A stretch of 64,000 bases of DNA from a virus: the IMG/VR virus record IMGVR_UViG_3300045993_000918, one strand, 5' to 3'. The position numbers and the translations under genes are program-made. Under the pieces are notes generated by a model, which worked only from the letters and a program-made list of their open reading frames with translations, searched no databases and had not been told where the DNA came from. Below are positions 3,001 through 37,278 of this stretch, piece by piece. Position 1 is the stretch's first letter. Every line of letters begins with the position of its first letter.

Positions 3001-3265
3001 CGTAGACGTTGACCCGGCCGCCGTTCTCGATGAACTGGCCGTCGCGACCGCGCGGGTGCAGCGCCTCGCTCCAGGCGGTCTTGATGCCCCTGACGACCTT
3101 GTCCCCGGCCCCGGCCGTGAGGCCCCAGCCCTCCGGGATCTGAGCCTCGGCGCCGAACGCCCGCGCCCTCCGGGTGACGTACCACCGGCTCTTCGGGTTC
3201 CGGTCCGCGTAGCGGATCGCCCCGTCCAGGTCAGCTGCCGAGGCCACAACGGGCACAGTGGACAT
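1..3265 (-). CDS. large acidic virion-associated protein, C-terminus runs off left edge (>1088 aa)
   Basis: Absent from track because no stop lies in the window. Hand translation of the minus strand is open from ATG 3265 (SD GGAGATGGAGA) to base 2 with high GC3: MSTVPVVASAADLDG... Asp/Glu-rich. Carries WSEALHPRGRDGQFIE module shared with 5150..12055. Confidence 0.75.
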   Translation of the reverse strand, partial: MSTVPVVASAADLDGAIRYADRNPKSRWYVTRRARAFGAEAQIPEGWGLTAGAGDKVVRGIKTAWSEALHPRGRDGQFIENGGRVNVYDGAGFAKPSKQGTAVGVSRDNVGKHIVVQVQLDDGSLIEVEPKNLDNAPDAKARLDGGSADSHLAKLRSDEEHPDEAQSEADPSWGGGPDDPERDKAFTDQVDQADEGADYKRFIADYTADQLTPDDALEVLSNWDMSQASGTERSGLRDLFAELQLDSDNEDLIKQAADNLEMGGGPYEDDHAVGPDVVEPSVPDAFDGGDLAGYDAADYEGIDSDWRSGDPDPKTNEDYAKAVFSEAQGYQEANVEDAEDPWVDSDLKTRMDALATAIRSGDSAAMADAADDMSGYLQDGYADMNDGDLPHRPEADGAPADPGVGDDATQGDLFLRGDPDDILAGYAGQDLVDAVNVPLTVASDFEAAAKEQPGLSDQLGAKLAEVLDREEESWGYLDPADAEGYDGDPEAEHGQSVVAARSIAEGLFGDPSGPGDATVVPPDALALPGTPDPNGPSGMEKLAGIAEQAGFEPPPSKGRPVPDELTRIANEMGMTTESQMAAEKSAADSATLQKELQSRFNTTDLTTLRDSRLSNEIQTYHQIEKQAPGSFGRSDRQILDALEAEKERRAASMGLGGDPFADSDLLESGPEGTTLTQRPNLEDFDTPSWTEGGNLDARIDEFRSMLESGTDPTENDGEFEPRLVRAYQNMLDIAGGLGYEDPDDYLDDYQAIDGLGWAVKEQLNSIVGKRALEDQNSNALQLIVDRLGESRNEDLRAVTDALREYLDVDDRVGGLQQNREAALGARADVVDERLKRLGPSFSSTVWGLASDHTGNREDGGAAAIEWAENVADSVDVVQDSDLDAEFFGALSQYAAETIRTDPGAVDSGKLTARLKEAVRRAKGEADEFGDAPSYKASGPDDARTKSRAEAFGDTELRSFPILDPRDPNFGHYEVWTVNDDGSKNGGRGVFPDKATAEAFAGDSNFLTRQLRGTDASIRELTDEELQQHVNNLVSELGPDAKFFADGSDGLAPVRLHGLITEANRRGFRVDTDGSMTKGDDSTPTPEPD

Positions 3266-3336
3266 CCGTATCTCCATCTCCGACGCCCTTGGCGGGGTTC
3301 GAGCTCGAGTTTATCAGACTTGAGGACAGCGAGGTA

Positions 3337-8100: not shown

Positions 8101-11100
8101 TCGAGAGCGAGACATCGGCGGCGCCCCACTCCGCGGTCGGGACCTTCGACCACATCGCCGCGAACCCAGCCGCACTAGTCGGAGCGGCCACCCGCGCCTT
8201 GGCCGGGACGGAGACGTGCGGTGTCTCCTGCGCCGAGATGCTAGTCTGCGGGAGCGGCGGCGCGATGGCGTCGGGGGAGTCGGCGTCAGCGTCGTCACCG
8301 TCGAGCATCGAGATCCCGACGCCAGACAGCGCAAGCGCTGCGGCTCCGCTCGCGACCAGCTTCCGGATCAGCGAGGTGCGCATCCAGTTGTGACTGTGCA
8401 CCTGCCGGGTATCCAGCGACCTGGTCTTCGCCAGGATCTCCTCGGCGGTCGGGACGACCTCCAGGACCTCGTGCACCTCGTCCGCGTCGTACGGCAGGAC
8501 GTGGTCCCCGACCCTGATCTCGGACGCGGGCGAGCTCGCGTAGTGCCGCGGCGCCCAGCTCGAGCCTTCCCACCGGTCCGACTCGTCCACGGACGGCGCG
8601 GGGCCGGACGGCGCGGGGCCGGACGGCGCGTCGCGGCGCTCCCGGCCGCCCCCTCGCACGTGGTAACCCTCGTCGATCGACTCGGCGCTGACGGAGCCCG
8701 CCGAGCCACCCGCCGACGGACGCCACCGGCCGTCTTCGAGCTTCGTGTAGAACTGACGGCCGGGTCGCTCAACGATCGTACCAGGCGAGAGCGCGTCGAG
8801 CTCTCCGAGGCTCAGCCCCTCCTTCGGGTCGAAAGGTGTAGCAGTGTACGAGCCGTCGTCGTTGATCCACCCGGCGAACGGGTCGTCGACGCGGTTCTTC
8901 TTGGTCTTCTTCCGGTGGCTCGCGACCATCCCGGCGCGCACCTCGTCCGGGTCGACCCCACGCTTCTCAGCGATCGCAGCGACGACGATCTCCATCGCCT
9001 CCCAGCTCGCGCGCTTCTGCGAGTCGGGCTTGTAGCTCCAACCGATGTAGTCCGCGGCGCCGCTCCACCAGTTCAGCGCGGCGCGCTCGGTGCGGAACGT
9101 CTCGCGGATCCCGCCGTCGTTGATCACCAGCGGCTCGCCCGTGGCCGTCGGCGCGTTGGCCTTCGCCTGCGCCTCACGCTCGAGCTTCGCTTGCGCCCGG
9201 AGTTCGCGGTCCTCCGCGGCCTTCCGCTCGTCGGGGGAGAAGATCCTGGTCTTCCGGTTCAGCGCGCTGACCGGTGCGGTCGGGTAGCACGTCGTGCAGG
9301 CCCTCTCACCAGCGTCACCGACGATCCGGTCCTCCTTCTCGTCGGCATACTCCGGCAGCCAGATGAACTCAGTGCCGCCCGACCAGGTCCCGTCGGGGCG
9401 GTACTGCCCGGGGCGGCAGGTCGAGCACTCCCGGCTCTTGTGTACGTGCCCCCCGCCGGAGGACGTCACGAGGAAGGCGCGCGTCCACCTGCCGCGGCGG
9501 TGGAACTCGCCCCTGTAGACCTCTTCGGCGGCTACCGCGACGCGACGCCTCTCCTGCAGCGCGTCGTACCGGGTACGCAGGTCGACGGTCCCGTACTCCT
9601 GAGTGGTGTAGTTGTACTCCTGCTTCGGCTCGTAGGCCGCGAGCACGTCAGCGAACGGCATCGCGTACAGGCGGTCATCCTCGCGCCACTTCGGCTTCTC
9701 ACCGGCCTTCTCGGTCCCGCCCGGCGTCGCGCGCCGGATCTGGTCCTGCAGTCGCGCAACCTCAGTCGCGACCTCGTACTGCTCGACCCAGGTCTGCTCG
9801 GTGTTGACGTCGATCTGCTTCGGTGAGAGGTCCTGGATCGCCGCGACGTCCGGATGCAGCCAGTCCTCGGTGAGTGCGGGTCGGACCGGCGGAGGGGTGT
9901 CTACGGGGTCGGAGACCTCCAGCGGAGGCGGAGGGACGGGCGCAGGCTCCGGGTCCACCGCAACCGGACCCGGAGGCGTCTTCTGGTCTACGTACGCAGC
10001 GCCGCGGTGATCGGTGGCGCTGAGCGCGTCGCGGATGGCATCGGCGCGACTGCGGAACCCGAACCGCTCACGCTGCGTACCGGGGAGCACGCCGGGCTCC
10101 GGGGCCCACGACCAGAGCGTCGCGTCCTTCCGGCTGCTCACGATCCGGCCGGAGCCTGGGCTCTTCTTGTCGATGTACCCCTCGTACGACTTGACACGGC
10201 CGAGCTTGGTTCCGTCCGGGGCGTACACACCGTAGGCCTTGCCGTCCCCCGAGCCGCTCTCGAGGACGACGGCGAACGTCTCCGGTGCGACGGGCCCCGG
10301 GTTCGGTGCGATGGGCCTCGGGAGGCCTTCGTCGGCCTTCTCGGGGGCGACGTCGCCGCGGAGCAGAGCGGCCTTCCGCTGCAGCGCCCGCAGCTGCTCC
10401 TCACGGTCGAGCTGGTAACCAGCAGCGACAGCCCGCCGCACAGCATCGGTCAGGCTGTTCGTGTCGATCGTGTCCTGAGCGCCGATAAGGGCGACGCGAA
10501 GGTCCTCGTCGTCTCCGGCGGACACGGCGTAACGCAACCCGCCCCTGCGGGAGTAGTAAGTGTGGACGACGGCGCGGGTCTGCCGGTCGCCGACGTACAC
10601 GTCGAACGTGCTGGCGTACTGGGCGACCGCCCCGGTATCGGGTCGGACCCACACGGCCTCGCCATTTGAACCGTCCACGCCCTCGATCGGGACAGACCAA
10701 CGCCCATCGGAATCCTGCCGCGCCTGGGACGGCGGGGTCAGCCCGACGCCGATGGGCTTCTCGACCACCGGAGGCGGAAGCTCCGCGGGGTCGGCCGCCT
10801 CGACGGGCTCCGATCCGCCCCTCGCCTCCTTCAGCGCGGCGTCCCGGGCGTCCGACATGTCGGTCATGCCGGTGACGGCCATGTAGCGCTGGACAGCCGC
10901 GTTGCGGGTGTCCCGCTTCTTCATCTTCTCCCGGTCGCCCTTGGGGGACGCCTGCCAGGTCGCCTCGGCCTCCGCGACCGCCGCGGCGGCCGAAGCGCGG
11001 TCGGCGCCGGGCTCCGGTACGTTCGGGGCGGGGTCGGGCTTCGGCGTCGGTGGGATGACCGCCTTCTTCCTCGGGGTCGGGTTCGTGCCGCGCTTCGTCA

Positions 11101-12055
11101 GGGCCATGGTGACGGCACCGCGGCGAGCGGCGAGCTTTGCGGAGCTGGAGCGGTACTGCGCCATCAGCTCGTCGTGCGGGAGATCGGACCGGTTGGTGAC
11201 GTCCATCTCGTCGTAGTACTCGGCATCGGCCCGGCTCATCCGGAGGACGGCCCACAGCGCGATCACCTCGCCGGTGTTGATCGACTCGCCGCGAGCGATC
11301 TTCCGAGCTCCGGAGCCGATCCTGTCGGCGAGCTCCTCGAGGGTCGGAGCGCGGTCCTTGCCCTTCTTCTCATCGTAAACCGCGGAGAGGTTGTTGAGCC
11401 CTTGAGCGCGCAGGCCGTTGAACGCGTCCTCGAGGGTGCGACCGGTCTCCGGGTCGACCACGACCTGCTCGGTCGTCCACCCGACCCGGCCCGACTTGAT
11501 CGTGTCCTCGATCTCGTACGGAGTCATCGGCCGACCGTCGTCGCCCAGCGGCGGCCACTCCGAGCTGGTCGGCCCCGAGCTCGAGGGGATCTCGGCCTTG
11601 ACCGAGGCGGTCTGGACCTGGTCGTAGTCGAAAGTCGCGTCGGTACCTCCGGCGGCCTCGGACCGAAGCACGACCTTCCCGTCGCTGAACCCGACGACGC
11701 GGCCGGACGCTACCTCCCGTGCCCCGTCGAAGACCTGCGCGAACGCGCCGACCTCGATGAACCTCCCGTCCCGCCCGCGCGGGTGGGCGTCGGCGTCCCA
11801 GACGCGCCCGAGGGCGCCCGCGACGTCGGGTGCGATGCTTGCGTGCTCAGCCATGCGGCCGATTGTACTCGCAGTCAAGCCCATTTCACGACCGCGTCGC
11901 ACGATGTGCGTGGCCGAGCCGAAGAGGTCCGGCGTACGTCCGGCTGCGAGCAGCGCCGCGATCACGTCGTCGACGTCCTCGATCGGGAGCCGACCGTCCG
12001 GCGTGGCGACGCCAGCGCGGGCCGCCTCGGCAACCCGGGACGGGGTCCAGATCAC
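5150..12055 (-). CDS. giant mosaic (polyvalent-type) virion protein, 2301 aa
   Basis: Track ORF 5150..12433. First 126 codons are Arg-rich and overlap the portal gene, so start set to GTG 12055 (GTGA overlap with portal stop). Modules: HPRGRDGRFIE, Cys/His Zn-ribbon-like GHVHKSRECSTC...ACTTC, hydrophobic helix, WLYGDTF domain, C-terminal HEEHH (HExxH). Confidence 0.8.
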   Translation of the reverse strand: MIWTPSRVAEAARAGVATPDGRLPIEDVDDVIAALLAAGRTPDLFGSATHIVRRGREMGLTASTIGRMAEHASIAPDVAGALGRVWDADAHPRGRDGRFIEVGAFAQVFDGAREVASGRVVGFSDGKVVLRSEAAGGTDATFDYDQVQTASVKAEIPSSSGPTSSEWPPLGDDGRPMTPYEIEDTIKSGRVGWTTEQVVVDPETGRTLEDAFNGLRAQGLNNLSAVYDEKKGKDRAPTLEELADRIGSGARKIARGESINTGEVIALWAVLRMSRADAEYYDEMDVTNRSDLPHDELMAQYRSSSAKLAARRGAVTMALTKRGTNPTPRKKAVIPPTPKPDPAPNVPEPGADRASAAAAVAEAEATWQASPKGDREKMKKRDTRNAAVQRYMAVTGMTDMSDARDAALKEARGGSEPVEAADPAELPPPVVEKPIGVGLTPPSQARQDSDGRWSVPIEGVDGSNGEAVWVRPDTGAVAQYASTFDVYVGDRQTRAVVHTYYSRRGGLRYAVSAGDDEDLRVALIGAQDTIDTNSLTDAVRRAVAAGYQLDREEQLRALQRKAALLRGDVAPEKADEGLPRPIAPNPGPVAPETFAVVLESGSGDGKAYGVYAPDGTKLGRVKSYEGYIDKKSPGSGRIVSSRKDATLWSWAPEPGVLPGTQRERFGFRSRADAIRDALSATDHRGAAYVDQKTPPGPVAVDPEPAPVPPPPLEVSDPVDTPPPVRPALTEDWLHPDVAAIQDLSPKQIDVNTEQTWVEQYEVATEVARLQDQIRRATPGGTEKAGEKPKWREDDRLYAMPFADVLAAYEPKQEYNYTTQEYGTVDLRTRYDALQERRRVAVAAEEVYRGEFHRRGRWTRAFLVTSSGGGHVHKSRECSTCRPGQYRPDGTWSGGTEFIWLPEYADEKEDRIVGDAGERACTTCYPTAPVSALNRKTRIFSPDERKAAEDRELRAQAKLEREAQAKANAPTATGEPLVINDGGIRETFRTERAALNWWSGAADYIGWSYKPDSQKRASWEAMEIVVAAIAEKRGVDPDEVRAGMVASHRKKTKKNRVDDPFAGWINDDGSYTATPFDPKEGLSLGELDALSPGTIVERPGRQFYTKLEDGRWRPSAGGSAGSVSAESIDEGYHVRGGGRERRDAPSGPAPSGPAPSVDESDRWEGSSWAPRHYASSPASEIRVGDHVLPYDADEVHEVLEVVPTAEEILAKTRSLDTRQVHSHNWMRTSLIRKLVASGAAALALSGVGISMLDGDDADADSPDAIAPPLPQTSISAQETPHVSVPAKARVAAPTSAAGFAAMWSKVPTAEWGAADVSLSIDLPGDRSVWLYGDTFSGNNGMVHSSAITQDGGTLHVSDGGRQLLPNDDANHIYWIEAAEVVDANHILVTAAPMEVGAEGPWDFKRTSEKSRTAMVTVDVDGDLHFARWVGHVDAPPKFADFEAVGEHHFTYESRAHPEVKLSSGKTLYTTNQNWDDDVSNHQNPDGSLRFEDYRPIFSEGEAGGRSGPADAISPEQMGLTADPVTGFLPVLSPEAVERAHARVARAREKLPDDPSEIGLTTGDRDPEQDAMVGRYEREATAHLAEAKAWEDWVDAVRAEYERRAAEPGGFVNDWDHPSSEDVPPPKSTVRVLGKRTTDGFQYVMRVGSYETFGVPGKSNLRDETLENWDPVKRARRLRKNAADSTEKAANARALADGSWTPETDAGYVKKKNLAEFYERRRNALAVWYEAIQHAGMKDPEDITLVEPPASVLDPANEFDPAFLSRVRNYASPYYWSHTNTDDYYLSVSMSRQAEEAADFRYRARDALEGNRLMLKKRLERGQNSIQQVDYMPDGGPGETTVAQLEAVVAMGQALEDEVDAQLAAEGLDAAKIFPDATEVKKYRQLLADFDDAKWQAFDEAAADVLKSRGVTNRRDYIMAWLDRTDHVYHENYIDSDWERDYDAAVGPELAAWAERLEQTLKSRTGNPLGNERRLYFERRKAIYVELLQRLGVPFGAPEEIDAPYVWDTDRSWVSPSQLKVGTLVSSGGDRNRPTKFKRAVTVTVVRQESDGSWHFEYSDGTSADRLPSYAWHEAPVTLESTDRVQARGIKEGLRQMPTAMVETAWGDGHKVTVRAARRGSRGTAELSLPSDHEAVSTVIHEEHHAVENNAAWVKRLEWAAMTDSCYRGKPGERKVKKGTAKELFKYRKTKLATILPGDGYSKYEIAFRDEFYSPYVGKVYAPGSWADDKIGSHTASYELLTMTSEAVLGDRSDVSPVSEQATRDRAKWMRAWYLGIVLLAQEHSAVRRGLKPGTPGAKLKAV

Positions 12056-13635
12056 GCCGGGACCTCCTCCTGCATCGGCACGGCCGAGAGGCCCGGGGGC
12101 GCTGCCTCGATCGCGACCGGAGCCGGAGCGGATGTGGCGGCGAGCTGCTCCTGCAGCCCGGGCGGGAACGGACTGGCCGACTGGTTCGAGGTCTGCGCCT
12201 TCTTGAGCACCTCGGGCATGAGGAACATCAGCAGCGCCTGCGAGATCTCCTCCGGGATGATCGCCTTCTCGACTGCCATCCGCCAGGTGATCTCCTCCTC
12301 GGTCGGCGCGTCGTTGTCGCCGAACCCGTGCGCCGCGCGCCAGGCCTCGCCGGAGAGGATGTACTTCTCGTACCCGCTGTCGGCGTCGTTGCTGCGGTTC
12401 GGCCGGACGACGACCTCGGACGGGTCGTACCACACGACGATCCGGTTGACATCCTCGGTCTCGTAGCCCGCGGCGCGCAGCAGCGGCCGGAGGTAGATGT
12501 CCGTGATCGCGTCGCAGAACATCAGCGCCAGCGGCTCGATGTGCGCCTTGTACAGGCCCTCGTCGATCTGGATCGCGTTGCTGTATTTGACGTTGGCCAG
12601 ACCGGTCACGATGTCCTTCGGCACGTCGATCCCCTGCAGGATCCGCTCGAGCACGCGCTCAGCCCGGTTGACCAGCGCCTCGTCGCTGTCGCGGCTCAGC
12701 TGGATGTACGCGATCTTCTCACCCTGCTCGGCCGGACCGCGAACCAGCAGCGGGACAACGCTCGCGGCGCTGCCCTCGTCGCTGATCGGCTGGGTCATCG
12801 CGGCGACGAGCTCGACCTCGAACGGATCCTCGCCCTCGGTCTCCTCCTCCCCGGGTGTGCGGGCCGAGATCGAGAGCGAGTCGGGCACGAACAGCAGACC
12901 GGCGTTGAGCCGGGAGCGGGTCGTCGCCCGGATCATCCGGCTCAGCAGCAGCAGCTCCTCGCAGTCCCCGCGGAGCGCCTTCATCGAGCTGTCCGGGTCG
13001 GCGCTGAACCGCGGGTGCGCCCGCCAGATCCGGCCGATCGGGGTGTCCTTCGGGATGACCTTCTCCCGGGCGGTGCTGGTCGAGACCGAGGCCTTGAGCA
13101 CGATCCGCCCGGCGCTGTTGACCCGCAGCTCGTCGACGGACTTCACACTCCACCGGTTCTCGATGCACACGAGGTAGCACTCGCCCGGGACGCTCATGTT
13201 CAGGCCGTAGGAGCGCAGCATCGCCGGGATCCCGTCGCCCTGACTCAGCTGCTCCATGAAGCGCTGGGCGTCCTTCGCCAGCCTGGGGTCGATCGGAGTC
13301 AGGCCCTGCAGCGGGCCGTCGTCGGCGTACTGCCCCTCGCCTTTGACGCCCGCGGCATCCGTGACGTTCGTCGGCGGGGCGTCAGAGTTGAGCACGGCGG
13401 AGGCGACGAGACGCACCCGGCTCAGCACGTTCGCGACCAGACCAAACCCGAACTTGACCTCGCCGATCGCGTCGTAGTACGCCCAGGCCTCGGCCTGCCA
13501 CTCGGCGTTCGGGCCGCTCAGACGCTCGCGCATCTGCTCGGCCTCGCCCTTCTTCGAGAGCGAGACCTTCGCAGCCGACGCAGTCAGCGTGCGGGTCTGG
13601 TTGTACGGAGCGGCCCTAGGCCTTCCGAACACCAC
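12052..13635 (-). CDS. portal protein
   Basis: 527-aa track ORF downstream of the terminase genes. Size and composition typical of SPP1-type portals. Alternative start ATG 13533 (MRERLSG). Confidence 0.75.
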   Translation of the reverse strand: MVFGRPRAAPYNQTRTLTASAAKVSLSKKGEAEQMRERLSGPNAEWQAEAWAYYDAIGEVKFGFGLVANVLSRVRLVASAVLNSDAPPTNVTDAAGVKGEGQYADDGPLQGLTPIDPRLAKDAQRFMEQLSQGDGIPAMLRSYGLNMSVPGECYLVCIENRWSVKSVDELRVNSAGRIVLKASVSTSTAREKVIPKDTPIGRIWRAHPRFSADPDSSMKALRGDCEELLLLSRMIRATTRSRLNAGLLFVPDSLSISARTPGEEETEGEDPFEVELVAAMTQPISDEGSAASVVPLLVRGPAEQGEKIAYIQLSRDSDEALVNRAERVLERILQGIDVPKDIVTGLANVKYSNAIQIDEGLYKAHIEPLALMFCDAITDIYLRPLLRAAGYETEDVNRIVVWYDPSEVVVRPNRSNDADSGYEKYILSGEAWRAAHGFGDNDAPTEEEITWRMAVEKAIIPEEISQALLMFLMPEVLKKAQTSNQSASPFPPGLQEQLAATSAPAPVAIEAAPPGLSAVPMQEEVPA

Positions 13636-20034: not shown

Positions 20035-20700
20035 TCAAGGCGCGAGCAGCGGGTGCTCCGCCGAGGCGATCAGCTCGAACCCTTCCGGCCCGGCGCCGAT
20101 CGCCGGGAGCTCCGGGCGGTGCAGCCGGATCGGCTCGATCGAGGGCTCGACGGTGGCGAACCGCGGATCCTGCGGGAGCTGGATCAGCCAGCCGCGCTGA
20201 AGGTCGGCCAGCGTCTCGCGCAGCAGCCGGATGCCCATCGGGAAGAGCGCCTCGGCCCACAGGTCGCTGGGGGTCCAGCGCGGGTCGACGTGGCAGAAGT
20301 CCTGCTTCGCGATCGGGCCGGTGTCGACCCCGGCGTCGGCGTAGAACCAGGTGAACCCGGTGACCGGGTCGCCCATCCGGACGGTCCACTCGACGCTCGA
20401 GCGCCCACGGTGCCGCGGGAGCAGGGAGGGGTGCCCGACCAGCGCACCGAGCCGGGTCGCCGCTCGGCTGTCCTTCCCGATGTAGGCGTGACAGTGTGCC
20501 GCGACGATCAGGTCGGCCTGCACCATCTTTACCCAGGCCGGGTGGAGCTCCGGCGCCCAGCTGAGGCCGTGGCGACCCGCAGCGTCATGCAGCTTGTCGT
20601 CGAGCGGCGCGACCACGCCGACGACTGCGTGCCCGTCCTTGAGCACCTGCTCGAGCGCGGCGACGCCGAACGACTTCGTGCCTGCAACGATGACCCTCAT
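20035..20700 (-). CDS. formyltransferase (Fmt/PurN/ArnA-like N-terminal domain)
   Basis: MRVIVAGTKSFG...HPSLLPRHRGRSSVEW...DAGVDTGPI motifs; SD AAGAGGTAGGGG. Confidence 0.7.
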   Translation of the reverse strand: MRVIVAGTKSFGVAALEQVLKDGHAVVGVVAPLDDKLHDAAGRHGLSWAPELHPAWVKMVQADLIVAAHCHAYIGKDSRAATRLGALVGHPSLLPRHRGRSSVEWTVRMGDPVTGFTWFYADAGVDTGPIAKQDFCHVDPRWTPSDLWAEALFPMGIRLLRETLADLQRGWLIQLPQDPRFATVEPSIEPIRLHRPELPAIGAGPEGFELIASAEHPLLAP

Positions 20701-20705
20701 GACCC

Positions 20706-21233
20706 CTACCTCTTGTACCTGAACCCGGCGACGCTTCTCCAATGGCCTCCAAACTCCATCTTCAAGTCCTTGCTCACCCGGCTCCCGGCCCCGCCGATCA
20801 GCTTCTGGCTGACCTGGTGCCAGTCCGGGTTCCGACGCAGCGCAGCGCAGAGCGCGGGGTGCGCGGTGTGCATCAGCGTCGGGACGGGCGAGCCGATGAA
20901 GCCGTCGCCGAGGAACTCGCGCTCAGCCAGGTGGTTCAGGAACCGCAGGCCCACGCCAGCACCCTGCCACTCCGGGTGCGTCACCATCCGGCAGGCTCGG
21001 GCGATCCGACGCTGGCCCGCCCAGAACCCGCTCATCCCGAGGAAGACGACCGGGTCGCCGCTGACCGCCTCGAACCCGGTGTAGGCGGTGCTGAACGGCA
21101 TCGGCTTCGCGTCGTGGAGGTAGTGGTGGTAGCGCGCCCACTCGAACCATGGACCCCAGCCCGTCTCGACCACCTCGAGCACGATCGGCTCGCGCTGGAA
21201 GATCTCGGGCGCCGCGAGCACCAGCTGCGTCAT
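20706..21233 (-). CDS. GNAT-like acetyltransferase
   Basis: 175 aa; THPEWQGAGVGLRFLNHL (Q/RxxGxG-type acetyl-CoA loop); ATGA overlap with ATPase stop. Confidence 0.55.
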   Translation of the reverse strand: MTQLVLAAPEIFQREPIVLEVVETGWGPWFEWARYHHYLHDAKPMPFSTAYTGFEAVSGDPVVFLGMSGFWAGQRRIARACRMVTHPEWQGAGVGLRFLNHLAEREFLGDGFIGSPVPTLMHTAHPALCAALRRNPDWHQVSQKLIGGAGSRVSKDLKMEFGGHWRSVAGFRYKR

Positions 21234-22532: not shown

Positions 22533-22781
22533 CTACGACGACCGCGGTTGCACCAGGTCGACGTACCCGTCGCGGATGAGCATCGTGATGTTCGCGCACG
22601 AGGCGCAGGTGATCCGGTCGTGCACCGTCACAGGAGCCGGGACCAAGTCGGTCCGGATCCCGCATAGGGTGCGGCCAGCCCCCATGATCGAGACATGGAG
22701 CTGGCCGCGGTACCCATCCTGGAGGTAGATCGTCCCGACCGTAGGTCGGGCCATCTGCCCTGTCTTCGGTATCCTGCCCAT
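22533..22781 (-). CDS. hypothetical protein (82 aa)
   Basis: Track ORF, plausible composition, abuts upstream stop. Confidence 0.55.
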   Translation of the reverse strand: MGRIPKTGQMARPTVGTIYLQDGYRGQLHVSIMGAGRTLCGIRTDLVPAPVTVHDRITCASCANITMLIRDGYVDLVQPRSS

Positions 22782-23638
22782 TACCCGCCCGTGCTCCCGA
22801 ACCCACGTTCACCGCGACCGTCCCCGGGGACGGCGGCGAACTCCTCCGGCGTAGCCCAGCTTGCGAAGTACTGGTTCGCGACGAGGTCGTGGAGGATCAG
22901 CTGCGCAACGCGCTCGCCAGCCTCCAGTATCACCTGCGTCGGAGACAGGTTCCGGACTCCGGCGAACAGCGGCCCGCGGTACCCCTGGTCGATGACCCCG
23001 TCGGCGACGAGCAGGCCCTTCCGCCGCAGCGTCGAGCTCCGACCGGTGATCCGCGCCCAGACCCCGGGCGGGAGGGCCGCGCGGACGCCGCACGGGACGT
23101 CAACGAATGAGTCGTGCCGGACCACGGTGCGCTCCGCGACGTAGAGGTCGAAGGCAGCGTCGCCCTCGTAGGCCCGGGTCGGGAGCACCGCGTCCGGATA
23201 GTCCGGCTCGGCCATGAACCGGAGCGGCTCACCAGCCAGCGCGGCAGTCTGCTCCCCGACCCAGGCCGCGAGACCGGGGGCGGAGGCGGTGCTGAACGGG
23301 AACCGGCGGCAGTCGGTCGCCGACCAGAGGTTCCCGTCCGCGACCACGGCGACGGGCTTCAGCATCGAGCGGGCGGCCTCGATCTCGCGCCCGACCCCGA
23401 GCGTCGGGATCCCCGGCGGGAGCAGCGCGACGACCACGTCGGCGGACCGCAGCGCCTCACGGTTGACGCGCTCGAGCCGAGGGTCCGGGGAGACCTGCGG
23501 GTGGACCAGGAACGCGCGCTCCGGACGGTAGACCAGGTGCTCCTGGAACCGAAGCTCGGAATCGATCTCGTCGAGGACGTGGTGCCAGCCGTCATCCTCT
23601 CCGGACCGGTCGACGGGTCGCGCCCTGTAGACGAACAT
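22781..23638 (-). CDS. fusion: nucleoside 2-deoxyribosyltransferase-like domain + trimeric dUTPase/dCTP deaminase-fold domain
   Basis: N-terminal ADVVVALLPPGIPTLGVGREIEAARSMLKPV (NDT/Rcl-like pattern). C-terminal GVIDQGYRGPLFAGVRN...GERVAQLIL...GERGFGSTG (dUTPase motifs). Confidence 0.65.
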   Translation of the reverse strand: MFVYRARPVDRSGEDDGWHHVLDEIDSELRFQEHLVYRPERAFLVHPQVSPDPRLERVNREALRSADVVVALLPPGIPTLGVGREIEAARSMLKPVAVVADGNLWSATDCRRFPFSTASAPGLAAWVGEQTAALAGEPLRFMAEPDYPDAVLPTRAYEGDAAFDLYVAERTVVRHDSFVDVPCGVRAALPPGVWARITGRSSTLRRKGLLVADGVIDQGYRGPLFAGVRNLSPTQVILEAGERVAQLILHDLVANQYFASWATPEEFAAVPGDGRGERGFGSTGG

Positions 23639-23943
23639 CAGGCCACCAGACCTTCGACCCGGGAGCAGAGCTGGTCCGAGAGAGCCTCGAGCTCGAACGG
23701 AGTGGTGCCGGGGTGGATCCTCGTCCGCTCGTGCTCCTCGTGGAACGCAGAGCGACCGCCAGGCCGCACCCAGGTGTCCACCACGAACTCACCCCCAGCG
23801 TACGCAGTCCGGACCCAGATCTCGCCGCTCGGATTGACCAGCTCGCCCGCGCTGTTCGCGTGGACGAACCCACAGGCGAGCAGCCTGTTGCGGAAGCCCT
23901 TGACCATCGCGGCGAGCCGCTCCGTCTGCTCCGTCGATCCCAT
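23638..23943 (-). CDS. hypothetical protein (101 aa)
   Basis: Track ORF; SD AGGAGTAAC. Confidence 0.6.
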   Translation of the reverse strand: MGSTEQTERLAAMVKGFRNRLLACGFVHANSAGELVNPSGEIWVRTAYAGGEFVVDTWVRPGGRSAFHEEHERTRIHPGTTPFELEALSDQLCSRVEGLVA

Positions 23944-24029
23944 GTTACTCCTAGCTCCGGCCCCGCAGCGTCCTGACGCGCAGGGCGTGTTGTACGACCC
24001 ATCCTAGCTGCCTGGCCGGGGATTCCGCC

Positions 24030-24356
24030 TCAGAGCACGCTGTGGTACTCCTCGTGGTAAGCCCGGGCGGCCCGCGAGAGCTGGATCCGATAGATCCCCT
24101 CGACGTACCTGGTGGCCGTCGCGGCGTCGCCCGCCTCCCACGCCCTCCGAGCCTCTTCGTACTTGGCCGGATCGCCGGTCTTGGCGAACAGCAGCGCCGC
24201 CCACACCGTCATCCCCGGGTGCATCGGCGTACGCTCACGCAGCCGCCGCATCGTCCAGTGGTAGAGCCAGTTCGGCAGCTGGTTCGCCGCCTGCGACTTC
24301 GCGATGAGGATCGCCTCAGCGTAGTCACGCTCGGTGACCTCACTCTCGTCAGCCAT
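24030..24356 (-). CDS. hypothetical protein (108 aa)
   Basis: Track ORF, overlaps upstream gene end. Confidence 0.6.
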   Translation of the reverse strand: MADESEVTERDYAEAILIAKSQAANQLPNWLYHWTMRRLRERTPMHPGMTVWAALLFAKTGDPAKYEEARRAWEAGDAATATRYVEGIYRIQLSRAARAYHEEYHSVL

Positions 24357-24630
24357 TGGTCCCCTCCTCCTCTCGCCGAGCGATCGATGCGTTGGCGAAG
24401 AACACGACCTCGTCGAGGTGCGTGAGTGCGAGCGCCTGCTCCCGGCTGGCGGGGGTCAGCTCCACGATCAGCCGGGCCAGGTGCAGCGCCCCGGAGCGGA
24501 GCGCGACGTAGCGCTCGGGCTGATCGCCCGTCGGTGCGTGGTAGCTGAACCGCGTGAGCAGCTCCTCGTCGGTCAGGAGCGCGTCAGTCCGGATGGTGAC
24601 CTCCACCGGGATCTTCGGCATCTGGGCCAT
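24349..24630 (-). CDS. hypothetical protein (93 aa)
   Basis: ATG 24630 in TGATG overlap; FSYHAPTGDQPERYVALR...SREQALALTHLDEVVFFANASIAR. Confidence 0.6.
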   Translation of the reverse strand: MAQMPKIPVEVTIRTDALLTDEELLTRFSYHAPTGDQPERYVALRSGALHLARLIVELTPASREQALALTHLDEVVFFANASIARREEEGTNG

Positions 24631-24887
24631 CAGACTACCTCCTCGTACGTGGCCTCGAAGATCTCGGGCTTGCACGGGTAGAACTCGCCCGCGACGCCGC
24701 AGATGATCCAGTCACCGAGGTCGGCGCGCATCGGCCCCTCGAGCGTCTGGATTAGCAGGAACGCGACGCGGTTGCCCTCCTTGACCATCGATGCCCCACA
24801 CCACTCAACGAGTGGCGCGTACGGCTGCTCGACCCGGCGGGCCTCGATCACGACCGGCAGCTTCCGGAACCGGCCCATCACGGCCAC
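24630..24887 (-). CDS. hypothetical protein (85 aa)
   Basis: Track ORF; KLPVVIEARRV...GDWIICGVAGEFYPCKPEIFEATYE. Confidence 0.6.
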   Translation of the reverse strand: MAVMGRFRKLPVVIEARRVEQPYAPLVEWCGASMVKEGNRVAFLLIQTLEGPMRADLGDWIICGVAGEFYPCKPEIFEATYEEVV

Positions 24888-25261
24888 CTCCCCGTCTCTC
24901 GTGCGAACATCGCCATCGAGGCGTACACCAGCGTGTCGCTCCAGGTGTCGAAGCTCGGCGTCTTGCCCTTGAGCATCGCATCGGCGACGCGCTGCACCTT
25001 CCCGTAGACGTAGAGGAAGCAGCCGATCTCGACGGCCTCCCGCTCCTCGATCTCGCGGCCCTGGCCGCGGGCGAAGATCCGGCCCATCTCGACCAGCGAG
25101 TTAGTCCCGTACTCCTCAGCCTTCGCCGCGATCGTCGGCGCGTTCGCGTCGACCCAGGCGTGGAACCAGTCCGGGTACGCGACCGGCGGGGCGACGACCC
25201 CGGTGATCGCGGACGGGTGCCGGGTCATCGACTCCGACCGCATGCCCTCCTCGTCCGTCAC
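24878..25261 (-). CDS. MazG-like all-alpha NTP pyrophosphohydrolase candidate (MazZ-like)
   Basis: 127 aa, GTGA-coupled to the purA-like gene. Acidic helix motifs AEEYG, EIEEREAVE, DTWSD. Assignment is by pattern and context only. Confidence 0.4.
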   Translation of the reverse strand: MTDEEGMRSESMTRHPSAITGVVAPPVAYPDWFHAWVDANAPTIAAKAEEYGTNSLVEMGRIFARGQGREIEEREAVEIGCFLYVYGKVQRVADAMLKGKTPSFDTWSDTLVYASMAMFARETGRWP

Positions 25262-26340
25262 AGCCAGGCCGATGGGTTGTAGACGCTCATCGTGTTCGGG
25301 CCCGTACCGACCAGCGCGACCGGCGCGGCAGCCTCGATCGCGATCGTGTCGAGGAAGTCGCGGTGCGTCTCCTTGAACTCGTCCGGCCGGGCATCACGCA
25401 GCTCCGGGTACTTCTGGTCGAGCATCGAGAGCGCGAGCACGACGTCGCGGCTCGGGCCGCCGTTCGCGCGCACCGCCTGGCTGACCCAGTCGGCGTCCCA
25501 GTCCCCGACGCGACGCACCTTCTTCGTCACCGTGGTCAGCTCCTCGGGCAGCCCGAGCGCCTCCCAGGTCGTCTCGGACGCGAGGTATCCGCTGTTGCCC
25601 GCGACGCGGATCGGATAGACCCGCACGACGACCACGACGCGGACCCGGCTCACGCCCTCGGCCCACGGGCTGACCCCGGCCATCGAGAGGAAGTCGATCG
25701 CCCGGCAGTCCGCCGTGGTGCACTTCGGGTAGTGCCCGGCGTGCAGCCCGAGCTGGTAGCCCTGGACGCCCTCGATCACGACGTGCCAGCCCTCGCTCAG
25801 GCGCCGGGAGAGCAGCGCCGCGGTGTTGACCACCCGGCCGGGCACCCCGCCGTTGACGGCGAAGTCGCCGATCAGCCGGGCGCCGCGCAGCATCCGGTCC
25901 GCCCGAGCGGCGCCGACGCCCTTCGCCGTCGAACCGATCGCCTTGTGCAGGTCGAGCGCAGCCTCGGTGTCCTTGTGCTTCTGCTCGATCACCGTCGACT
26001 CCGGGTCGACCCAGAGCCGATCCGCGATCCGGTGCCCGGCGGCCTCGAGCTCGGAGACCTCGGACCGGAGCACGTCGAGGTCGATCTCGGACCCGGCGGC
26101 GATCACCAGCGCGGCGTTCGGGTTGACGAAGCTGACGGGCACGTGCCGGAGTGGCCAGGCGCGGCCGGAGTCGTCGTAGACCGTGTGCCCAGCCTGGCTC
26201 CCCCCGACCCGCACCCCGACATGCGGGGTCTTCGAGCTCGCGTCCTCGTAGGCGAGGAAGCCGGTCGCGGCCCCCTTCGCCTCCGAGCCCGCCTGGCCGC
26301 CTACCACCACGGTGATCAGGCCCTGTCGTGAGATGGTCAT
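25258..26340 (-). CDS. purZ: short adenylosuccinate synthetase homologue, PurZ candidate
   Basis: 360 aa. Aligns by eye to PurA: GGQAGSEAKGA vs GDEGKGK P-loop (Asp to Ser), GGSQAGHTV, IGSTAKGVG, IEGVQGYQLG..GHYP, TTVTKKVRRVGDWD, VGTGPN. SD AGGAGGA. Confidence 0.7.
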   Translation of the reverse strand: MTISRQGLITVVVGGQAGSEAKGAATGFLAYEDASSKTPHVGVRVGGSQAGHTVYDDSGRAWPLRHVPVSFVNPNAALVIAAGSEIDLDVLRSEVSELEAAGHRIADRLWVDPESTVIEQKHKDTEAALDLHKAIGSTAKGVGAARADRMLRGARLIGDFAVNGGVPGRVVNTAALLSRRLSEGWHVVIEGVQGYQLGLHAGHYPKCTTADCRAIDFLSMAGVSPWAEGVSRVRVVVVVRVYPIRVAGNSGYLASETTWEALGLPEELTTVTKKVRRVGDWDADWVSQAVRANGGPSRDVVLALSMLDQKYPELRDARPDEFKETHRDFLDTIAIEAAAPVALVGTGPNTMSVYNPSAWL

Positions 26341-29563: not shown

Positions 29564-30021
29564 GTCCCCGCCTCCGTCGTCGGCTCAGCCGGGGCGCGAC
29601 GGATGTCCGCTGCCATCTGCGTCCGCACGCGGGCCTCGATGAGCGGGAGGACGGCGGCTACGGCGAGTGCGGCGAACTTCTCCCGCTCGTGGAGGTGCAG
29701 CGGACCCTCACTGACCTCGGAGTCGGCCATCGCCTCGCTCGCAGCCCGCACGATCGCCTCGTCGGAGATGTTCTCGCTGACGAGACGACGGCCGTGCCGT
29801 TCGATCGCGGCCAGGTGGTTCAGGAAGTCGGGGTGCGACGAGAAGGTGATGCCGCACTCCACACACTTGACTGGGCGGTACTCCACTACGGCTCGGTCGG
29901 TGGTCGGTGCGGGAGCGACGTAGGAGGGGCAGGCGCAACCTTCCTTGAAGCATTGAGGCCCTGCGGAGAAGTGCTGATACTTGTCGTGCGCGCAGTTGGC
30001 GCAGGCTCGGTCGGTGGTCAC
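29560..30021 (-). CDS. zinc-finger hypothetical protein (153 aa)
   Basis: Track ORF; CANCAHDKYQH...CFKEGCAC...CVECG. Confidence 0.65.
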   Translation of the reverse strand: MTTDRACANCAHDKYQHFSAGPQCFKEGCACPSYVAPAPTTDRAVVEYRPVKCVECGITFSSHPDFLNHLAAIERHGRRLVSENISDEAIVRAASEAMADSEVSEGPLHLHEREKFAALAVAAVLPLIEARVRTQMAADIRRAPAEPTTEAGT

Positions 30022-32009
30022 TTCTCGAACCCGCTCTCATCGCAGCTGCCGGGGATCCCGAAGTGCTCGAGCCAGGACTCGGCGGTCATCGCCTTGATCT
30101 GCGCGACGATCTCGTCGGCCTCGTCCTCGCGGAGGTCCAGGAGGACGGAGTCGTGGACGGTCAGCACCAGGGCCTCCTGCGGGGCGGTGAGCCGCTCGAC
30201 CATCGGGAGCCAGACGTTCCCGACCCAGCGCGCGAGGCTGCCCTGGACCCGGCGGTTCCAGGCCGTGTTCGGGTAGTCGGTCGGGCCGCCCATCCAGCTG
30301 AACGTCCCATCGTAGAGCGGCACCCGCTTGTTGACCTGCGCGTAGTCGCTCCAGCTCTCGTACTCAACGCCGAACTCCGGGTAGGACGCGCGCCAGGCCA
30401 CCACAGCGTCGCGGCAGCGCGAGAGCTCCCACTTGACCCCGGCGAGCTGCATCAGCGTCGCCTGGAACCGCGGCGCGCCGATCATGAAGATCGAGCCGAA
30501 GGTCAGCCGCTTCGCGATATCCCGGTACTCGCTCCAGCCCTCGTCGCCGGGGTGCAGCCCGAAGACCTGCGTGGTGGTCCGGCCGTGGAAGTCGGCCCCC
30601 TCGGCGAGGTCGGTGACCATGGGCTTGCAGTCCGCGAGCTGCGCAGCGATCCGGAGCTCAGCCTGCGCGAGGTCGAGGTTGACCCGCCGACGGCCCTCCG
30701 GCACGCCGAAGAGGCTGCGCGGCTCCGGCAGCACGTCCCCGAGCAGCGTGATCCCCGTGTGCTTCGGCAGCGCCTGCGCCTGGAACCGCTCGACGCTCAT
30801 CCGCCCCGACTTGACCCAGGCCTGGCGGAAGGACGTGCGCAGCCGACGGTCCGGTCCGGCGAGCTCCGCGTAGTTCCGGTAGAACATCCGGTTCGCCATC
30901 GTGAGGTCGACGAACTCCGCGTACTCGGCCGCGCCCGGCACGCCCTGGGCCGCCATCCGGCGCGAGACGTCAACGGTCAGCGTGCCCTGCTTCTCGACCT
31001 TCGTCTCGCCGGGCTTCTTGAGGTTCGGCGCGAGTACGCGGCGCTCCTCGCCCGGCTCCCACGGCGCGAGCCCGAGCTCGTCGAAGAAGTACGCCGTCGC
31101 GACCGTCGCAGTGGCCGGGGAGAACGGGAGCGCCGTCGCGAGGTCCGCGATCCGGGCCTCGACCCGGTCCGCGATCGCAGCGGAGCGCTCGACCTCGTAC
31201 GGCCCGAGGCCGCGGCGCTCGATCCGGTACAGGATCCGGGCCAGCCGGACCGCCGCGGCGTACTCCTCGTACGGCAGCTCGCCAGAGTCGATCCGCTCCA
31301 TCTGGAGCTCATGGAGCCGGAGCGCGAGCACCGCGTCAGCGAAGACGTACGGCCCGAGGATCTCCCACGGCACGAGGTCGTAGCGGGGCCCGTGCTCGGC
31401 CCGGAGCCCGTAGCGCTTCTTCACGTCGATCAGCGCCTGCCTCTGGTCGGCGGCCTCCTCGACCGCCTCAGCTCCCCAGTACCTCGCCGCGGTCGGCTTC
31501 AGCGACGTGGTCCCGGCGGTCGGGTCGAGCACGCTCGTGCCCAGCATCGTGTCGTAGAGCTTCCCGGCCGGGATGTACGGCTCGATGTCGACACCGCACC
31601 AGCCCCAGGGCGCCCCGCCGCGGAGCATGTGCATGTCGAACTTGACGTTCTGGTTGACGTACCCGACGCGGCTCACGGCGCGTACGATCCAGTCCAGCAG
31701 GTAGTCCCACTCCTCACGGGGGAGGTTCGGCTGCGGGTCCTCCCAGCTGTCGTTGCCCCCGCGGGCGGCGCCGGACTTGAGTCGCTGGACCGAGAAGCCC
31801 TTCCGGGCGGAGTCCCCGACGTCGAACGGGAAACCGTGCGCCTGGATGAAGCCGGGGTCGTCGGAGCGGCGGTAGGCCAGGCCGCCCGCGACGGTGTAGG
31901 CGCCGTCGTCGACGAACAGCCCGGTCGTCTCCAGGTCGGCGCACAGCGGCCCGACGAGCAGCTCCGGGTCGGGCAGGACCATGCTGGGAAGCTCGAGTTC
32001 GAAGGTCAT
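30018..32009 (-). CDS. family A DNA polymerase with 3'-5' exonuclease domain (DpoZ candidate)
   Basis: Exo I CADLETTG; motif A NLDLAQAELRIAA; motif B RDIAKRLTFGSIFMIG; motif C VLTVHDSVLLD. ATG 6 nt downstream of TGGTAGGCT. Confidence 0.85.
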   Translation of the reverse strand: MTFELELPSMVLPDPELLVGPLCADLETTGLFVDDGAYTVAGGLAYRRSDDPGFIQAHGFPFDVGDSARKGFSVQRLKSGAARGGNDSWEDPQPNLPREEWDYLLDWIVRAVSRVGYVNQNVKFDMHMLRGGAPWGWCGVDIEPYIPAGKLYDTMLGTSVLDPTAGTTSLKPTAARYWGAEAVEEAADQRQALIDVKKRYGLRAEHGPRYDLVPWEILGPYVFADAVLALRLHELQMERIDSGELPYEEYAAAVRLARILYRIERRGLGPYEVERSAAIADRVEARIADLATALPFSPATATVATAYFFDELGLAPWEPGEERRVLAPNLKKPGETKVEKQGTLTVDVSRRMAAQGVPGAAEYAEFVDLTMANRMFYRNYAELAGPDRRLRTSFRQAWVKSGRMSVERFQAQALPKHTGITLLGDVLPEPRSLFGVPEGRRRVNLDLAQAELRIAAQLADCKPMVTDLAEGADFHGRTTTQVFGLHPGDEGWSEYRDIAKRLTFGSIFMIGAPRFQATLMQLAGVKWELSRCRDAVVAWRASYPEFGVEYESWSDYAQVNKRVPLYDGTFSWMGGPTDYPNTAWNRRVQGSLARWVGNVWLPMVERLTAPQEALVLTVHDSVLLDLREDEADEIVAQIKAMTAESWLEHFGIPGSCDESGFEK

Positions 32010-35906: not shown

Positions 35907-36085
35907 GCGGTCGCCCTCCAGGTCGCCGCGATCGCGCCGCGCAGCCACTCCGCTGCGCAGGACTCCGCCTCGTACGGGGACCAGTCGTCGGCCAGGAGCT
36001 TGGCTCGGAGTCCCTTCGCCGCCTCTAGGATCGGGTCCAGCTGCTCCATCGCGGTGACCAGGGCCTCGGCCAGTTCGTCGCTCAC
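35903..36085 (-). CDS. small helical protein (60 aa)
   Basis: GTGA overlap with purB stop; MSDELAEALVTAMEQL... Confidence 0.45.
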   Translation of the reverse strand: MSDELAEALVTAMEQLDPILEAAKGLRAKLLADDWSPYEAESCAAEWLRGAIAATWRATA

Positions 36086-37278
36086 GACGAGCCCTCCTCG
36101 TCGGCCACGGAGGCCTCTTTCGTCGCCTCGGGGGCACCGGTGGGTCCTGGCCCCCGACCGGCCCCTCGCCCGACCTCGTAGGCGGCTTCGTGGCTCATCC
36201 CGTCGGCGACCCGACGCCACAGCTCGGCTGGGCTCTCCGGGATCCGGGCGAGGTTCGCCTCGCAGACCCGGGCGTCGACGGTCAGACCGCGAGCGACGTT
36301 CGTCGCCTCGACCAGGCAGTACGCCGTGAGTCCGACCAGCTGGGGGACCACGACCCGCTCGACGCTGCTCGCGGAGAGGTCGCGCTGGTCCCACCAGACG
36401 ACGTTGGCGTCGAGCGCCCCCGCTAGTGCCCGCGTGACGCGCTCGAGCCCACAGATCCGCTCGGACCGAGTCGGGTTCTGCTTGAACGCCATGCTCGAGC
36501 TCCCGACGTAGCGCGAGACTCCGGTCGGCTCGAAGAGCTCACCGTCGCGGGCCCCGAGCCGGACCTGTAGCGCGAAGTGCGCCGCGGCGGTCGCGAGGTC
36601 GGCGACGCTCCGGCCCCACCGCGCGATCTGGTCCCGCCGGACAGCCTGCTCCGAGTGCGACTCGAGCACGACTCCGAGCATACCGGAGGCCCGTACGGCA
36701 GCCTGCCGACTGAACGTCTCGTACCGCCCCGTCGGACCGCCGAGGCTGGCCCGGAGCCCGGCGGTGGCGTCGAAGAGCTCCATCCTGGCGCCGAGCACCC
36801 GGGCGGCCCAGGCCTGGCCCTGGACCGAGAGGTACGAGGCCTCCGCGAGCTGGCCGTGCGTCCTAGAGGCCCGCGCCACCGAGGGCAGCGCTTCGAGCGT
36901 CTGACCGAGCGTCCCAGCCTCTGCCCCGAGCCAGGAGGCCGCGGAGTGCAGCGTCATCACCAGGCTCGTGTCGACCAGATTCGAGGACGTGAGCCCGAAG
37001 TGGACCCAGTCCCGGGTATCGGACGCGACGACTTCGCGGACCACGGAGAGGAACGCAGCGACGTCGTGCCCGAGCTCAGCCTCCCTCTGGGCCATCACGA
37101 CGAAGTCGGTCTCGTTGAACCGGTCCGGGACCGTGTCAGGCTCGACCGAGCTCGGGACCAGCCCGTGGGCCCGGGCAGCCCGGAGCACCTCGCGGCTCAC
37201 GGCCAGCCACCCCGCAGCGGTCGCCTCGGCGGAGAACAGGTCCTCGACCCACTGGACAGAGTAGCGATCGGTCGTCAT
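36082..37278 (-). CDS. purB: adenylosuccinate lyase
   Basis: Fumarate-lyase signature GSSSMAFKQNPTRSE, WVHFGLTSSNLVDTSL, RTHGQLAE, WWDQRDLSASSVER. Collinear by eye with bacterial PurB. ATG 7 nt downstream of TGGTAGACT. Confidence 0.85.
   Translation of the reverse strand: MTTDRYSVQWVEDLFSAEATAAGWLAVSREVLRAARAHGLVPSSVEPDTVPDRFNETDFVVMAQREAELGHDVAAFLSVVREVVASDTRDWVHFGLTSSNLVDTSLVMTLHSAASWLGAEAGTLGQTLEALPSVARASRTHGQLAEASYLSVQGQAWAARVLGARMELFDATAGLRASLGGPTGRYETFSRQAAVRASGMLGVVLESHSEQAVRRDQIARWGRSVADLATAAAHFALQVRLGARDGELFEPTGVSRYVGSSSMAFKQNPTRSERICGLERVTRALAGALDANVVWWDQRDLSASSVERVVVPQLVGLTAYCLVEATNVARGLTVDARVCEANLARIPESPAELWRRVADGMSHEAAYEVGRGAGRGPGPTGAPEATKEASVADEEGSS

Follow-up and report, generated by a model that had tools for sequence, protein, structure and literature searches.

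A probable DmtZ-DutZ fusion for dATP clearance in an uncultured, PurZ0-type Z-genome actinophage

How does a phage with a Z genome, based on 2-aminoadenine (the Z base), clear dATP when no HD-type DatZ is found beside its purZ gene? This question is raised by IMG/VR virus record IMGVR_UViG_3300045993_000918, of which we analyzed a stretch of 64,000 nucleotides (hereafter the window), and by one gene within it at 22781..23638 on the minus strand. A first-pass annotation had described that gene as a fusion of a domain resembling nucleoside 2-deoxyribosyltransferase (NDT) and Rcl to a domain of the dUTPase fold, and had suggested that it removes dA nucleotides by triphosphate hydrolysis and then base cleavage, replacing DatZ. 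Both the architecture and the proposed role found support in our analysis. With a probability of about 0.85, we read the gene product as a bifunctional DmtZ-DutZ enzyme belonging to a PurZ0-type Z-genome actinophage. Homology supports its placement as a divergent new member of the DmtZ-DutZ family from an uncultured, Hiyaa-like actinophage. The concept of dATP clearance by DmtZ-DutZ is already published (PMC12884076).

The gene is an open reading frame (ORF) of 285 amino acids (aa) plus a stop codon, starting at ATG, with a GC content of 0.90 at third codon positions (GC3) in a window of 69.7% GC. It shares a 1-base overlap with the neighboring ORF on each side, an arrangement as in a tightly packed operon. 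All convincing genes of the window lie on the minus strand. We therefore dismissed the plus-strand ORFs over the fusion gene (e.g. 23114..24007) as antisense shadows of a high-GC gene. The assignment of the whole gene draws on the ORF itself, its GC3, and homology to the fusion proteins of the phages Wayne and Hiyaa (gp69). Within it we predicted a DmtZ domain of the NDT/DNPH1 fold (aa 1 to ~135, 23234..23638), a linker (aa ~136–147, 23198..23233), and a DutZ domain of the trimeric-type dUTPase fold (aa 148–285, 22784..23197), all on the minus strand. The linker boundaries are estimates from the N-terminal model, whose final helix stops at aa 134 with falling predicted local distance difference test (pLDDT) values beyond, and from the start of the dUTPase match at aa 148–150. 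All motifs quoted in the first-pass annotation were present, namely DVVVALLPPGIPTLGVGREIEAA at aa 67–89, GVIDQGYRG at aa 214–222, and GFGSTG at aa 279–284. With 5 kb around the gene as the query, megablast returned nothing from 50,697 phage records, and the phage was therefore placed at the protein level.

Structure and profile comparisons identified the N-terminal half as an NDT/DNPH1-type domain. An AlphaFold2 model of aa 1–140 had a pLDDT of 93.6 and a predicted template modeling score (pTM) of 0.88. The top 50 Foldseek matches of this model in the PDB were all NDT, DNPH1, or MilB structures, with TM scores of 0.55–0.71 and E values down to 5.6e-6. A 30-sequence profile of the domain matched rat DNPH1/Rcl (4FYH, E = 4.5e-4) and an NDT (7M5H, E = 2e-3). 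In the profile alignment, E85 of the window protein paired with the Glu of the Rcl motif GVGYE, which we take to be the Rcl nucleophile. Searched alone, the N-terminal domain matched the Wayne protein (E = 5e-6), the stand-alone ‘nucleoside deoxyribosyltransferase’ of Sapo (E = 1e-6 / 6e-11), and Archimedes DmtZ (E = 8e-11). Its matches in the phage collection were confined to phages of Arthrobacter, Gordonia, and Streptomyces, and every such locus that we opened had a purZ homologue 2–3 genes upstream.

The residues on which published DmtZ activity depends were retained. In the numbering of the DmtZ of Gordonia phage Ghobes, the invariant columns were Y6, A8, P10, D12, P57, A60, N77, P92, G99, E103, V114, D119, and W124, which take in every Ghobes residue called catalytic or important (PMC12884076). 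Ghobes Y6, D12, P57, N77, G99, E103, and W124 correspond to Y4, D10, P39, N59, G81, E85, and W105 in the window protein. In a set of 104 fused proteins, D10, G81, and E85 never varied (104/104), while Y4 was kept in 102, P39 and N59 in 103 each, and W105 in 73, with F, V, M, or Y at the last position in the others. In this alignment, Y4/N59/E85 is the counterpart of the Ghobes catalytic triad Tyr6/Asn77/Glu103. The critical residues published for DmtZ thus hold in >100 metagenomic fusions. Before the nucleophile, GVGRE is found in the window protein and in 13 of its 103 homologues, where most others have GVPxE. These form a minority subclade (14/104), and 9 of the 14 GVGRE proteins also carried Arg at aa 5 and 11. 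Position 11 is equivalent to Ghobes Gln13 and is an Arg in the window protein.

By sequence, the C-terminal half was a complete dUTPase of the trimeric type. It matched PF00692 over aa 150–284 (E = 5.7e-22), phrog_135 (E = 1.8e-36), and PDB structures of Mycobacterium tuberculosis Dut (E = 6e-15), the last with an alignment reaching through motif V. All five dUTPase motifs were present and conserved across homologues (DAAFDL, GRSS, GVIDQGYRG, RVAQL, and RGERGFGSTG for motifs I–V). A reading of this half as a dCTP deaminase was rejected: the PF22769 and phrog_1663 matches were partial and scored far below dUTPase, and motif V (RGxxGFGSTG) was present. The domain shared 50–56% identity (107–113 bits) with the enzymes of Korravirus, Ghobes, and some Microbacterium phages, and 28–45% identity (50–71 bits) with all other listed phage dUTPases. 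Identity to DutZ was 49% for Sapo and 45% for Archimedes, and the DutZ-type range overall was 45–56%. This bimodal split, a similarity proxy and not a tree, would place the domain with the DutZ clade, which has been defined as a monophyletic group (PMC12884076).

The dUTPases of Microbacterium phages Sucha (MK737942.1), SBlackberry (MZ747515.1), and PermaG (MZ150782.1) were 50–53% identical to the C-terminal domain of the window protein, no farther from it than the Korravirus and Ghobes enzymes, and no Microbacterium phage matched in the search of the phage collection with the N-terminal domain. Either these are PurZ0 phages that carry dutZ alone, or their DutZ-like enzymes may belong to phages without Z genomes.

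At full length, the window protein was 34% identical to Wayne DmtZ-DutZ (ALY10777.1, E = 5e-40) and 35% identical to Hiyaa gp69. The full-length search returned 212 homologues, including >100 full-length fusions of 275–320 aa and 35–73% identity, nearly all metagenomic. The fusion of Arthrobacter phage Wayne and the separate DmtZ and DutZ of Ghobes have been characterized by Poubanne et al. (Nucleic Acids Research (NAR) 2026, February; PMC12884076). In that work, Wayne DutZ converted dATP, dGTP, and dUTP to deoxynucleoside monophosphates (dNMPs) with apparent kcat values of 5.9, 0.56, and 16.4 s-1, and the Wayne fusion turned dATP mainly into adenine. With the domains separated, the C-terminal one yielded dAMP from dATP and the N-terminal one made adenine from dAMP only, the products from dAMP being adenine and deoxyribose-5-phosphate. 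Wayne and Ghobes DmtZ were active on dAMP and inactive on triphosphates and AMP. DmtZ could also move the deoxyribose-5-phosphate of dAMP onto the Z base, giving the Z-base monophosphate dZMP by a second route, and the DutZ output dGMP is the PurZ substrate. Ghobes DmtZ variants E103A, Y6A, D12A, and D12R had no detectable dAMP hydrolysis, and E103A and Y6A also lost transfer. N77D impaired hydrolysis and transfer, and P57A did not selectively alter transfer. Asp12 of the Ghobes enzyme was proposed to read the adenine 6-amino group, Pro57 to be a ‘water-excluding’ transferase residue, and Trp124 to be a lid residue. Among 98 PurZ0 genomes surveyed in the same study, dutZ was present in 98, dmtZ in 85, and the two were fused in 77 (PMC12884076). 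A separate group had noted that Wayne-like dZ phages without DatZ and MazZ carry a ‘dUTPase/NDT dual protein’ (preprint 10.1101/2025.10.22.683976).

The genome context of the fusion was that of a PurZ0 phage. The window holds large terminase, portal, lysis, tail, and replication genes, and the purZ reported by the first-pass annotation was borne out by a PF00709 match (E = 2e-35) at 25258..26340 on the minus strand. This gene encodes a 360-aa, purZ0-type 2-aminoadenylosuccinate synthetase with 45–48% identity to the PurZ0 of Wayne, Hiyaa, Sapo, and Archimedes and 31–33% to the PurZ of S-2L and phiVC8. It has the PurZ-hallmark Ser19 within GSEAKG, a motif common to the PurZ0 references, where the PurZ references read GSTGKG. 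A family A DNA polymerase (30018..32009, minus strand, PF00476) is Wayne-like and, by similarity, DpoZ-1-like. It shares 30% identity with its Wayne counterpart (E = 5e-73), and its comparison with phiVC8 DpoZ gave nothing significant. A 398-aa PurB-like adenylosuccinate lyase (36082..37278, minus strand, PF00206 Lyase_1) was 33% identical to the PurB-like lyase of Hiyaa (E = 7e-31), and the phage lineage may bring its own post-PurZ0 lyase in place of host PurB.

Other pool enzymes of Z phages were sought in the same window. PurZ0 phages use DutZ, DmtZ, and DUF5664, and most PurZ phages use DatZ with MazZ-2 or DUF550 (PMC12884076). No HD, MazG, DUF550, or DUF5664 domain came up when Pfam was run on the fusion protein, on 40 further ORFs, and on 39 minus-strand ORFs selected from those remaining (neighbor scans at a cut-off of E ≤ 0.01). 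In tblastn searches of the six-frame window, S-2L and phiVC8 DatZ and S-2L MazZ gave noise only (E ≥ 0.3) and Wayne DUF5664 gave no match at E ≤ 10. Pfam and tblastn thus agree with the first-pass annotation that the window holds no HD-type DatZ. The fusion was found with purZ0 not only in Wayne and Hiyaa, but also in two metagenomic contigs of 89 and 92 kb (L012 and L014), in which an order of PolA ... PurZ0, 127-aa domain, small ORF(s), and ~300-aa NDT-dUTPase fusion recurs. The 89-kb contig also has a PurB-like lyase further along.

The N-terminal fold, the C-terminal match to the dUTPase family with its motifs, the catalytic residues, the homology, and the PurZ0 context established here allow an outline of how the enzyme would work, in which we infer substrates and products by reference to the enzymes of Wayne and Ghobes. 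The DutZ domain would hydrolyze dATP to dAMP and pyrophosphate, and also dUTP to dUMP and dGTP to dGMP, the last feeding PurZ0. In the DmtZ domain, Tyr4 and Asn59 would position Glu85 for nucleophilic attack on dAMP, and Asp10 would recognize the 6-amino group of adenine. Cutting of the glycosidic bond would release adenine, and the deoxyribose-5-phosphate would go to water or to free 2-aminoadenine, in the latter case forming dZMP. The net effect would be an irreversible clearance of dATP while the phage polymerase uses dZTP, a job done by DatZ and MazZ in PurZ-type phages. The two-step removal of dA nucleotides suggested by the first-pass annotation is supported by homology to the Wayne fusion, whose measured activity it matches, together with retained residues and the PurZ0 context. 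That annotation had not considered transfer to the Z base by DmtZ, production of dGMP by DutZ, or the dUTP hydrolysis of the Wayne enzyme. Since an NDT fold that forms dimers is here joined to a dUTPase fold that forms trimers, the fusion may build a higher-order assembly, in which dAMP might pass from one site to the other. The Wayne fusion had cooperative kinetics, and its fused model (pTM 0.498) had low confidence in domain placement (PMC12884076).

Wayne DmtZ-DutZ shares with the window protein an NDT-like N-terminus, a linker, a dUTPase C-terminus, and the same critical residues, and its gene likewise lies a few genes downstream of one of the purZ0 type, with no DatZ or MazZ in the Wayne genome or in the window. 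The Wayne fusion is longer (306 aa vs 285 aa, the window protein having a shorter linker) and reads GVPAE instead of GVGRE. Wayne is a 44-kb Korravirus, whereas the window phage has a genome of ~85 kb or more. In Gordonia phage Ghobes (DmtZ gp53, DutZ gp55) and its relatives Sapo (a Ghobesvirus) and Archimedes, the two domains are separate genes, unlike the fusion here, with 45–49% identity for DutZ and 30–37% for DmtZ. The mutagenized residues Y6, D12, P57, N77, and E103 are all conserved. Ghobes DmtZ additionally hydrolyzes dZMP (PMC12884076). Streptomyces phage Hiyaa was like the window in its large genome (83 kb), its fused gp69, its PurZ0 followed by a domain of the 127-aa family described below and then by the fusion, and its PurB-like lyase. 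It had no nucleotide-level similarity to the window, and its 127-aa-family domain is the C-terminus of the 419-aa gp68. In the window, four additional small genes, of which one carries an Acb2/Tad1 hairpin domain, separate the 127-aa gene from the fusion.

DNPH1/Rcl and bacterial NDTs have the same alpha/beta fold, a Glu in G-V-G-x-E, and a Tyr near the N-terminus, but the third triad residue is usually Asp where the window protein and DmtZ have Asn, and the published DmtZ relatives are dAMP-specific. Dual hydrolase and phosphodeoxyribosyl-transferase activity has been reported for DmtZ only (PMC12884076). The HD-domain DatZ of S-2L and phiVC8, with MazZ or DUF550, performs the same task of dATP exclusion and dGMP supply with unrelated folds and chemistry. 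DatZ converts dATP to deoxyadenosine and triphosphate, whereas DmtZ-DutZ would take dATP through dAMP to adenine and deoxyribose-5-phosphate.

Several points weigh against the DmtZ-DutZ reading. Identity to the characterized enzymes was 29–35%. As a single sequence, the N-terminal domain scored 16.9 bits against PF05014 (Nuc_deoxyrib_tr), below the gathering cut-off of 28.8. Pfam did not cover the published DmtZ proteins and the authors made their own hidden Markov model (PMC12884076); passing the PF05014 threshold is not a defining feature of DmtZ. For the C-terminal domain, the methods, results, and discussion of PMC12884076 name no residues for purine acceptance by DutZ, so purine activity cannot be read from the window sequence, and the highest kcat of the Wayne enzyme was that for dUTP. 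The GVGRE motif together with the Arg could shift the hydrolase/transferase balance or the specificity in the subclade of the window protein. Finally, the 127-aa protein of the window described below is recorded on a source contig of 84,788 bp, and ~20 kb therefore lie outside the scanned window. We infer that this part holds mostly virion genes, since the window ends carry large ORFs without nucleotide-metabolism matches.

Alternatively, the protein could be an ordinary housekeeping dUTPase keeping uracil out of phage DNA, with an inert, structural, or regulatory N-terminal domain. Its C-terminal domain has all canonical dUTPase motifs, the Wayne orthologue turns over dUTP at 16.4 s-1 against 5.9 s-1 for dATP, and public records name relatives just ‘deoxyuridine triphosphatase’. 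However, the full or nearly full invariance of the NDT triad and Asp10 in the 104 fused homologues speaks for a functional active site, and against the fallback of the first-pass annotation that the accessory domain is attached to what is simply a dUTPase. The N-terminal domain of the orthologue both hydrolyzes dAMP and carries out transfer, and in the phage collection this domain was found only in Arthrobacter, Gordonia, and Streptomyces phages whose opened loci all had an upstream purZ homologue. We consider a plain dUTPase extremely improbable. An active N-terminal domain could instead be a classical nucleoside 2-deoxyribosyltransferase that does not act on dAMP (e.g. dA + Z → dZ + A) and is uncoupled from the dUTPase product. 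True NDTs were numerous among the top Foldseek matches, the transferase hallmark Pro39 was conserved, and a stand-alone NDT of a predicted dZ phage carries out purine/purine nucleoside transfer with a preference for dA (preprint 10.1101/2025.10.22.683976). This nucleoside-level activity is nevertheless very unlikely for the window protein: its closest characterized relatives, Wayne and Ghobes DmtZ, use dAMP, the best sequence-profile match was the dNMP hydrolase DNPH1/Rcl, and fusion to a dNMP-producing enzyme fits a dNMP substrate.

A closer variant leaves the pathway role as proposed and holds that the DmtZ of this subclade is a pure dAMP N-hydrolase like DNPH1/Rcl that has lost transfer to the Z base. 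The GVGRE of the window protein and its 13 relatives recalls Rcl GVGYE where most DmtZ have GVPxE, and nine of these proteins share the Arg residues at positions 5 and 11, yet Pro39 (the ‘water-excluding’ residue) and Trp105 were retained in the window protein. The lack of a selective transfer change in Ghobes P57A also makes single-residue predictions of the balance weak. We regard the loss of transfer as unlikely, and prefer a DmtZ-DutZ enzyme with both hydrolase and transferase activities in its N-terminal domain.

The DmtZ-DutZ gene was accompanied by a second conserved gene of the cassette, directly downstream of purZ0 (24878..25261, minus strand), that encodes a 127-aa all-alpha protein with four helices in its predicted structure. 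Its homologues, Archimedes gp51, the C-terminus of Sapo gp51, and the C-terminus of Hiyaa gp68, all occupy the same position, so that Sapo and Archimedes, like the window, have a gene of this family next after purZ0. The family comprised 918 cluster representatives at E ≤ 1e-3, with a strongly conserved core of ~95 residues. Its synteny with PurZ0 was the same in the 89-kb and 92-kb contigs, and in at least two metagenomic proteins (P0243 and P0260) the domain was fused C-terminally to PurZ0-like enzymes. The gene was also seen on metagenome fragments of 1–2.7 kb from the Joint Genome Institute (JGI) with the same gene order (samples 3300045825, 3300045970, 3300045918, and 3300045971).

In Wayne, the slot after purZ0 is held by DUF5664, a dATP/dGTP pyrophosphohydrolase, whereas the 127-aa protein has no detectable link to that family. 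Prompted by this position and by the motif ‘KAEEYG’, we considered the protein as a divergent pyrophosphohydrolase of the DUF5664/MazZ type and rejected this, as it had no support from Pfam, PHROG, hhalign, or Foldseek. It had no Pfam match even at E ≤ 10 (Wayne gp51 matched PF18909 at 3.5e-32) and no significant PHROG match, the best being phrog_28536 of unknown function at E = 0.05. A 53-sequence profile aligned with hhalign gave a probability of <1% against both Wayne DUF5664 and S-2L MazZ. Foldseek found nothing in the PDB at E < 1, with the MazG-like DR2231 at a probability of 0.3, and a sequence profile search of the PDB found nothing. A keyword search of the text of the NAR paper found no mention of the gene (PMC12884076). 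We tentatively propose that the Z-DNA cassette of the Hiyaa-like lineage holds the 127-aa protein as one more dedicated component, which is possible but less than an even chance. It might be a novel enzyme of the nucleotide pool, or else a partner protein of PurZ0. Its family, tied to purZ0 by synteny and fusion, is a candidate for the ‘uncharacterized phage proteins’ of the published pathway scheme.

Two further small genes lie between purZ0 and the fusion, both on the minus strand. An 85-aa protein (24630..24887) matched phrog_419 of unknown function (E = 2.6e-29) and, more weakly, phrog_4159 (in its N-terminal part; ‘nucleotide pyrophosphohydrolase’, E = 1.4e-7) and Pfam PGDYG (E = 0.012). 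The other small protein (24349..24675) has an Acb2/Tad1 hairpin domain (PF24729, E = 1.8e-16), a family name that denotes the anti-CBASS/anti-Thoeris signal sponges. This gene was also found on short JGI fragments, where it was called as 93 aa.

Elsewhere on the minus strand, an unexpected phage enzyme of 235 aa (20035..20742) has a formyltransferase N-terminal domain (PF00551, E = 3.4e-21). Its gene is downstream of ParB-like and ABC-like ATPase genes and upstream of terminase. Two minus-strand ORFs were unusually large: one of 2427 aa (5150..12433) follows the portal-region genes, and one of >1100 aa (1..3310) continues past the left edge of the window.

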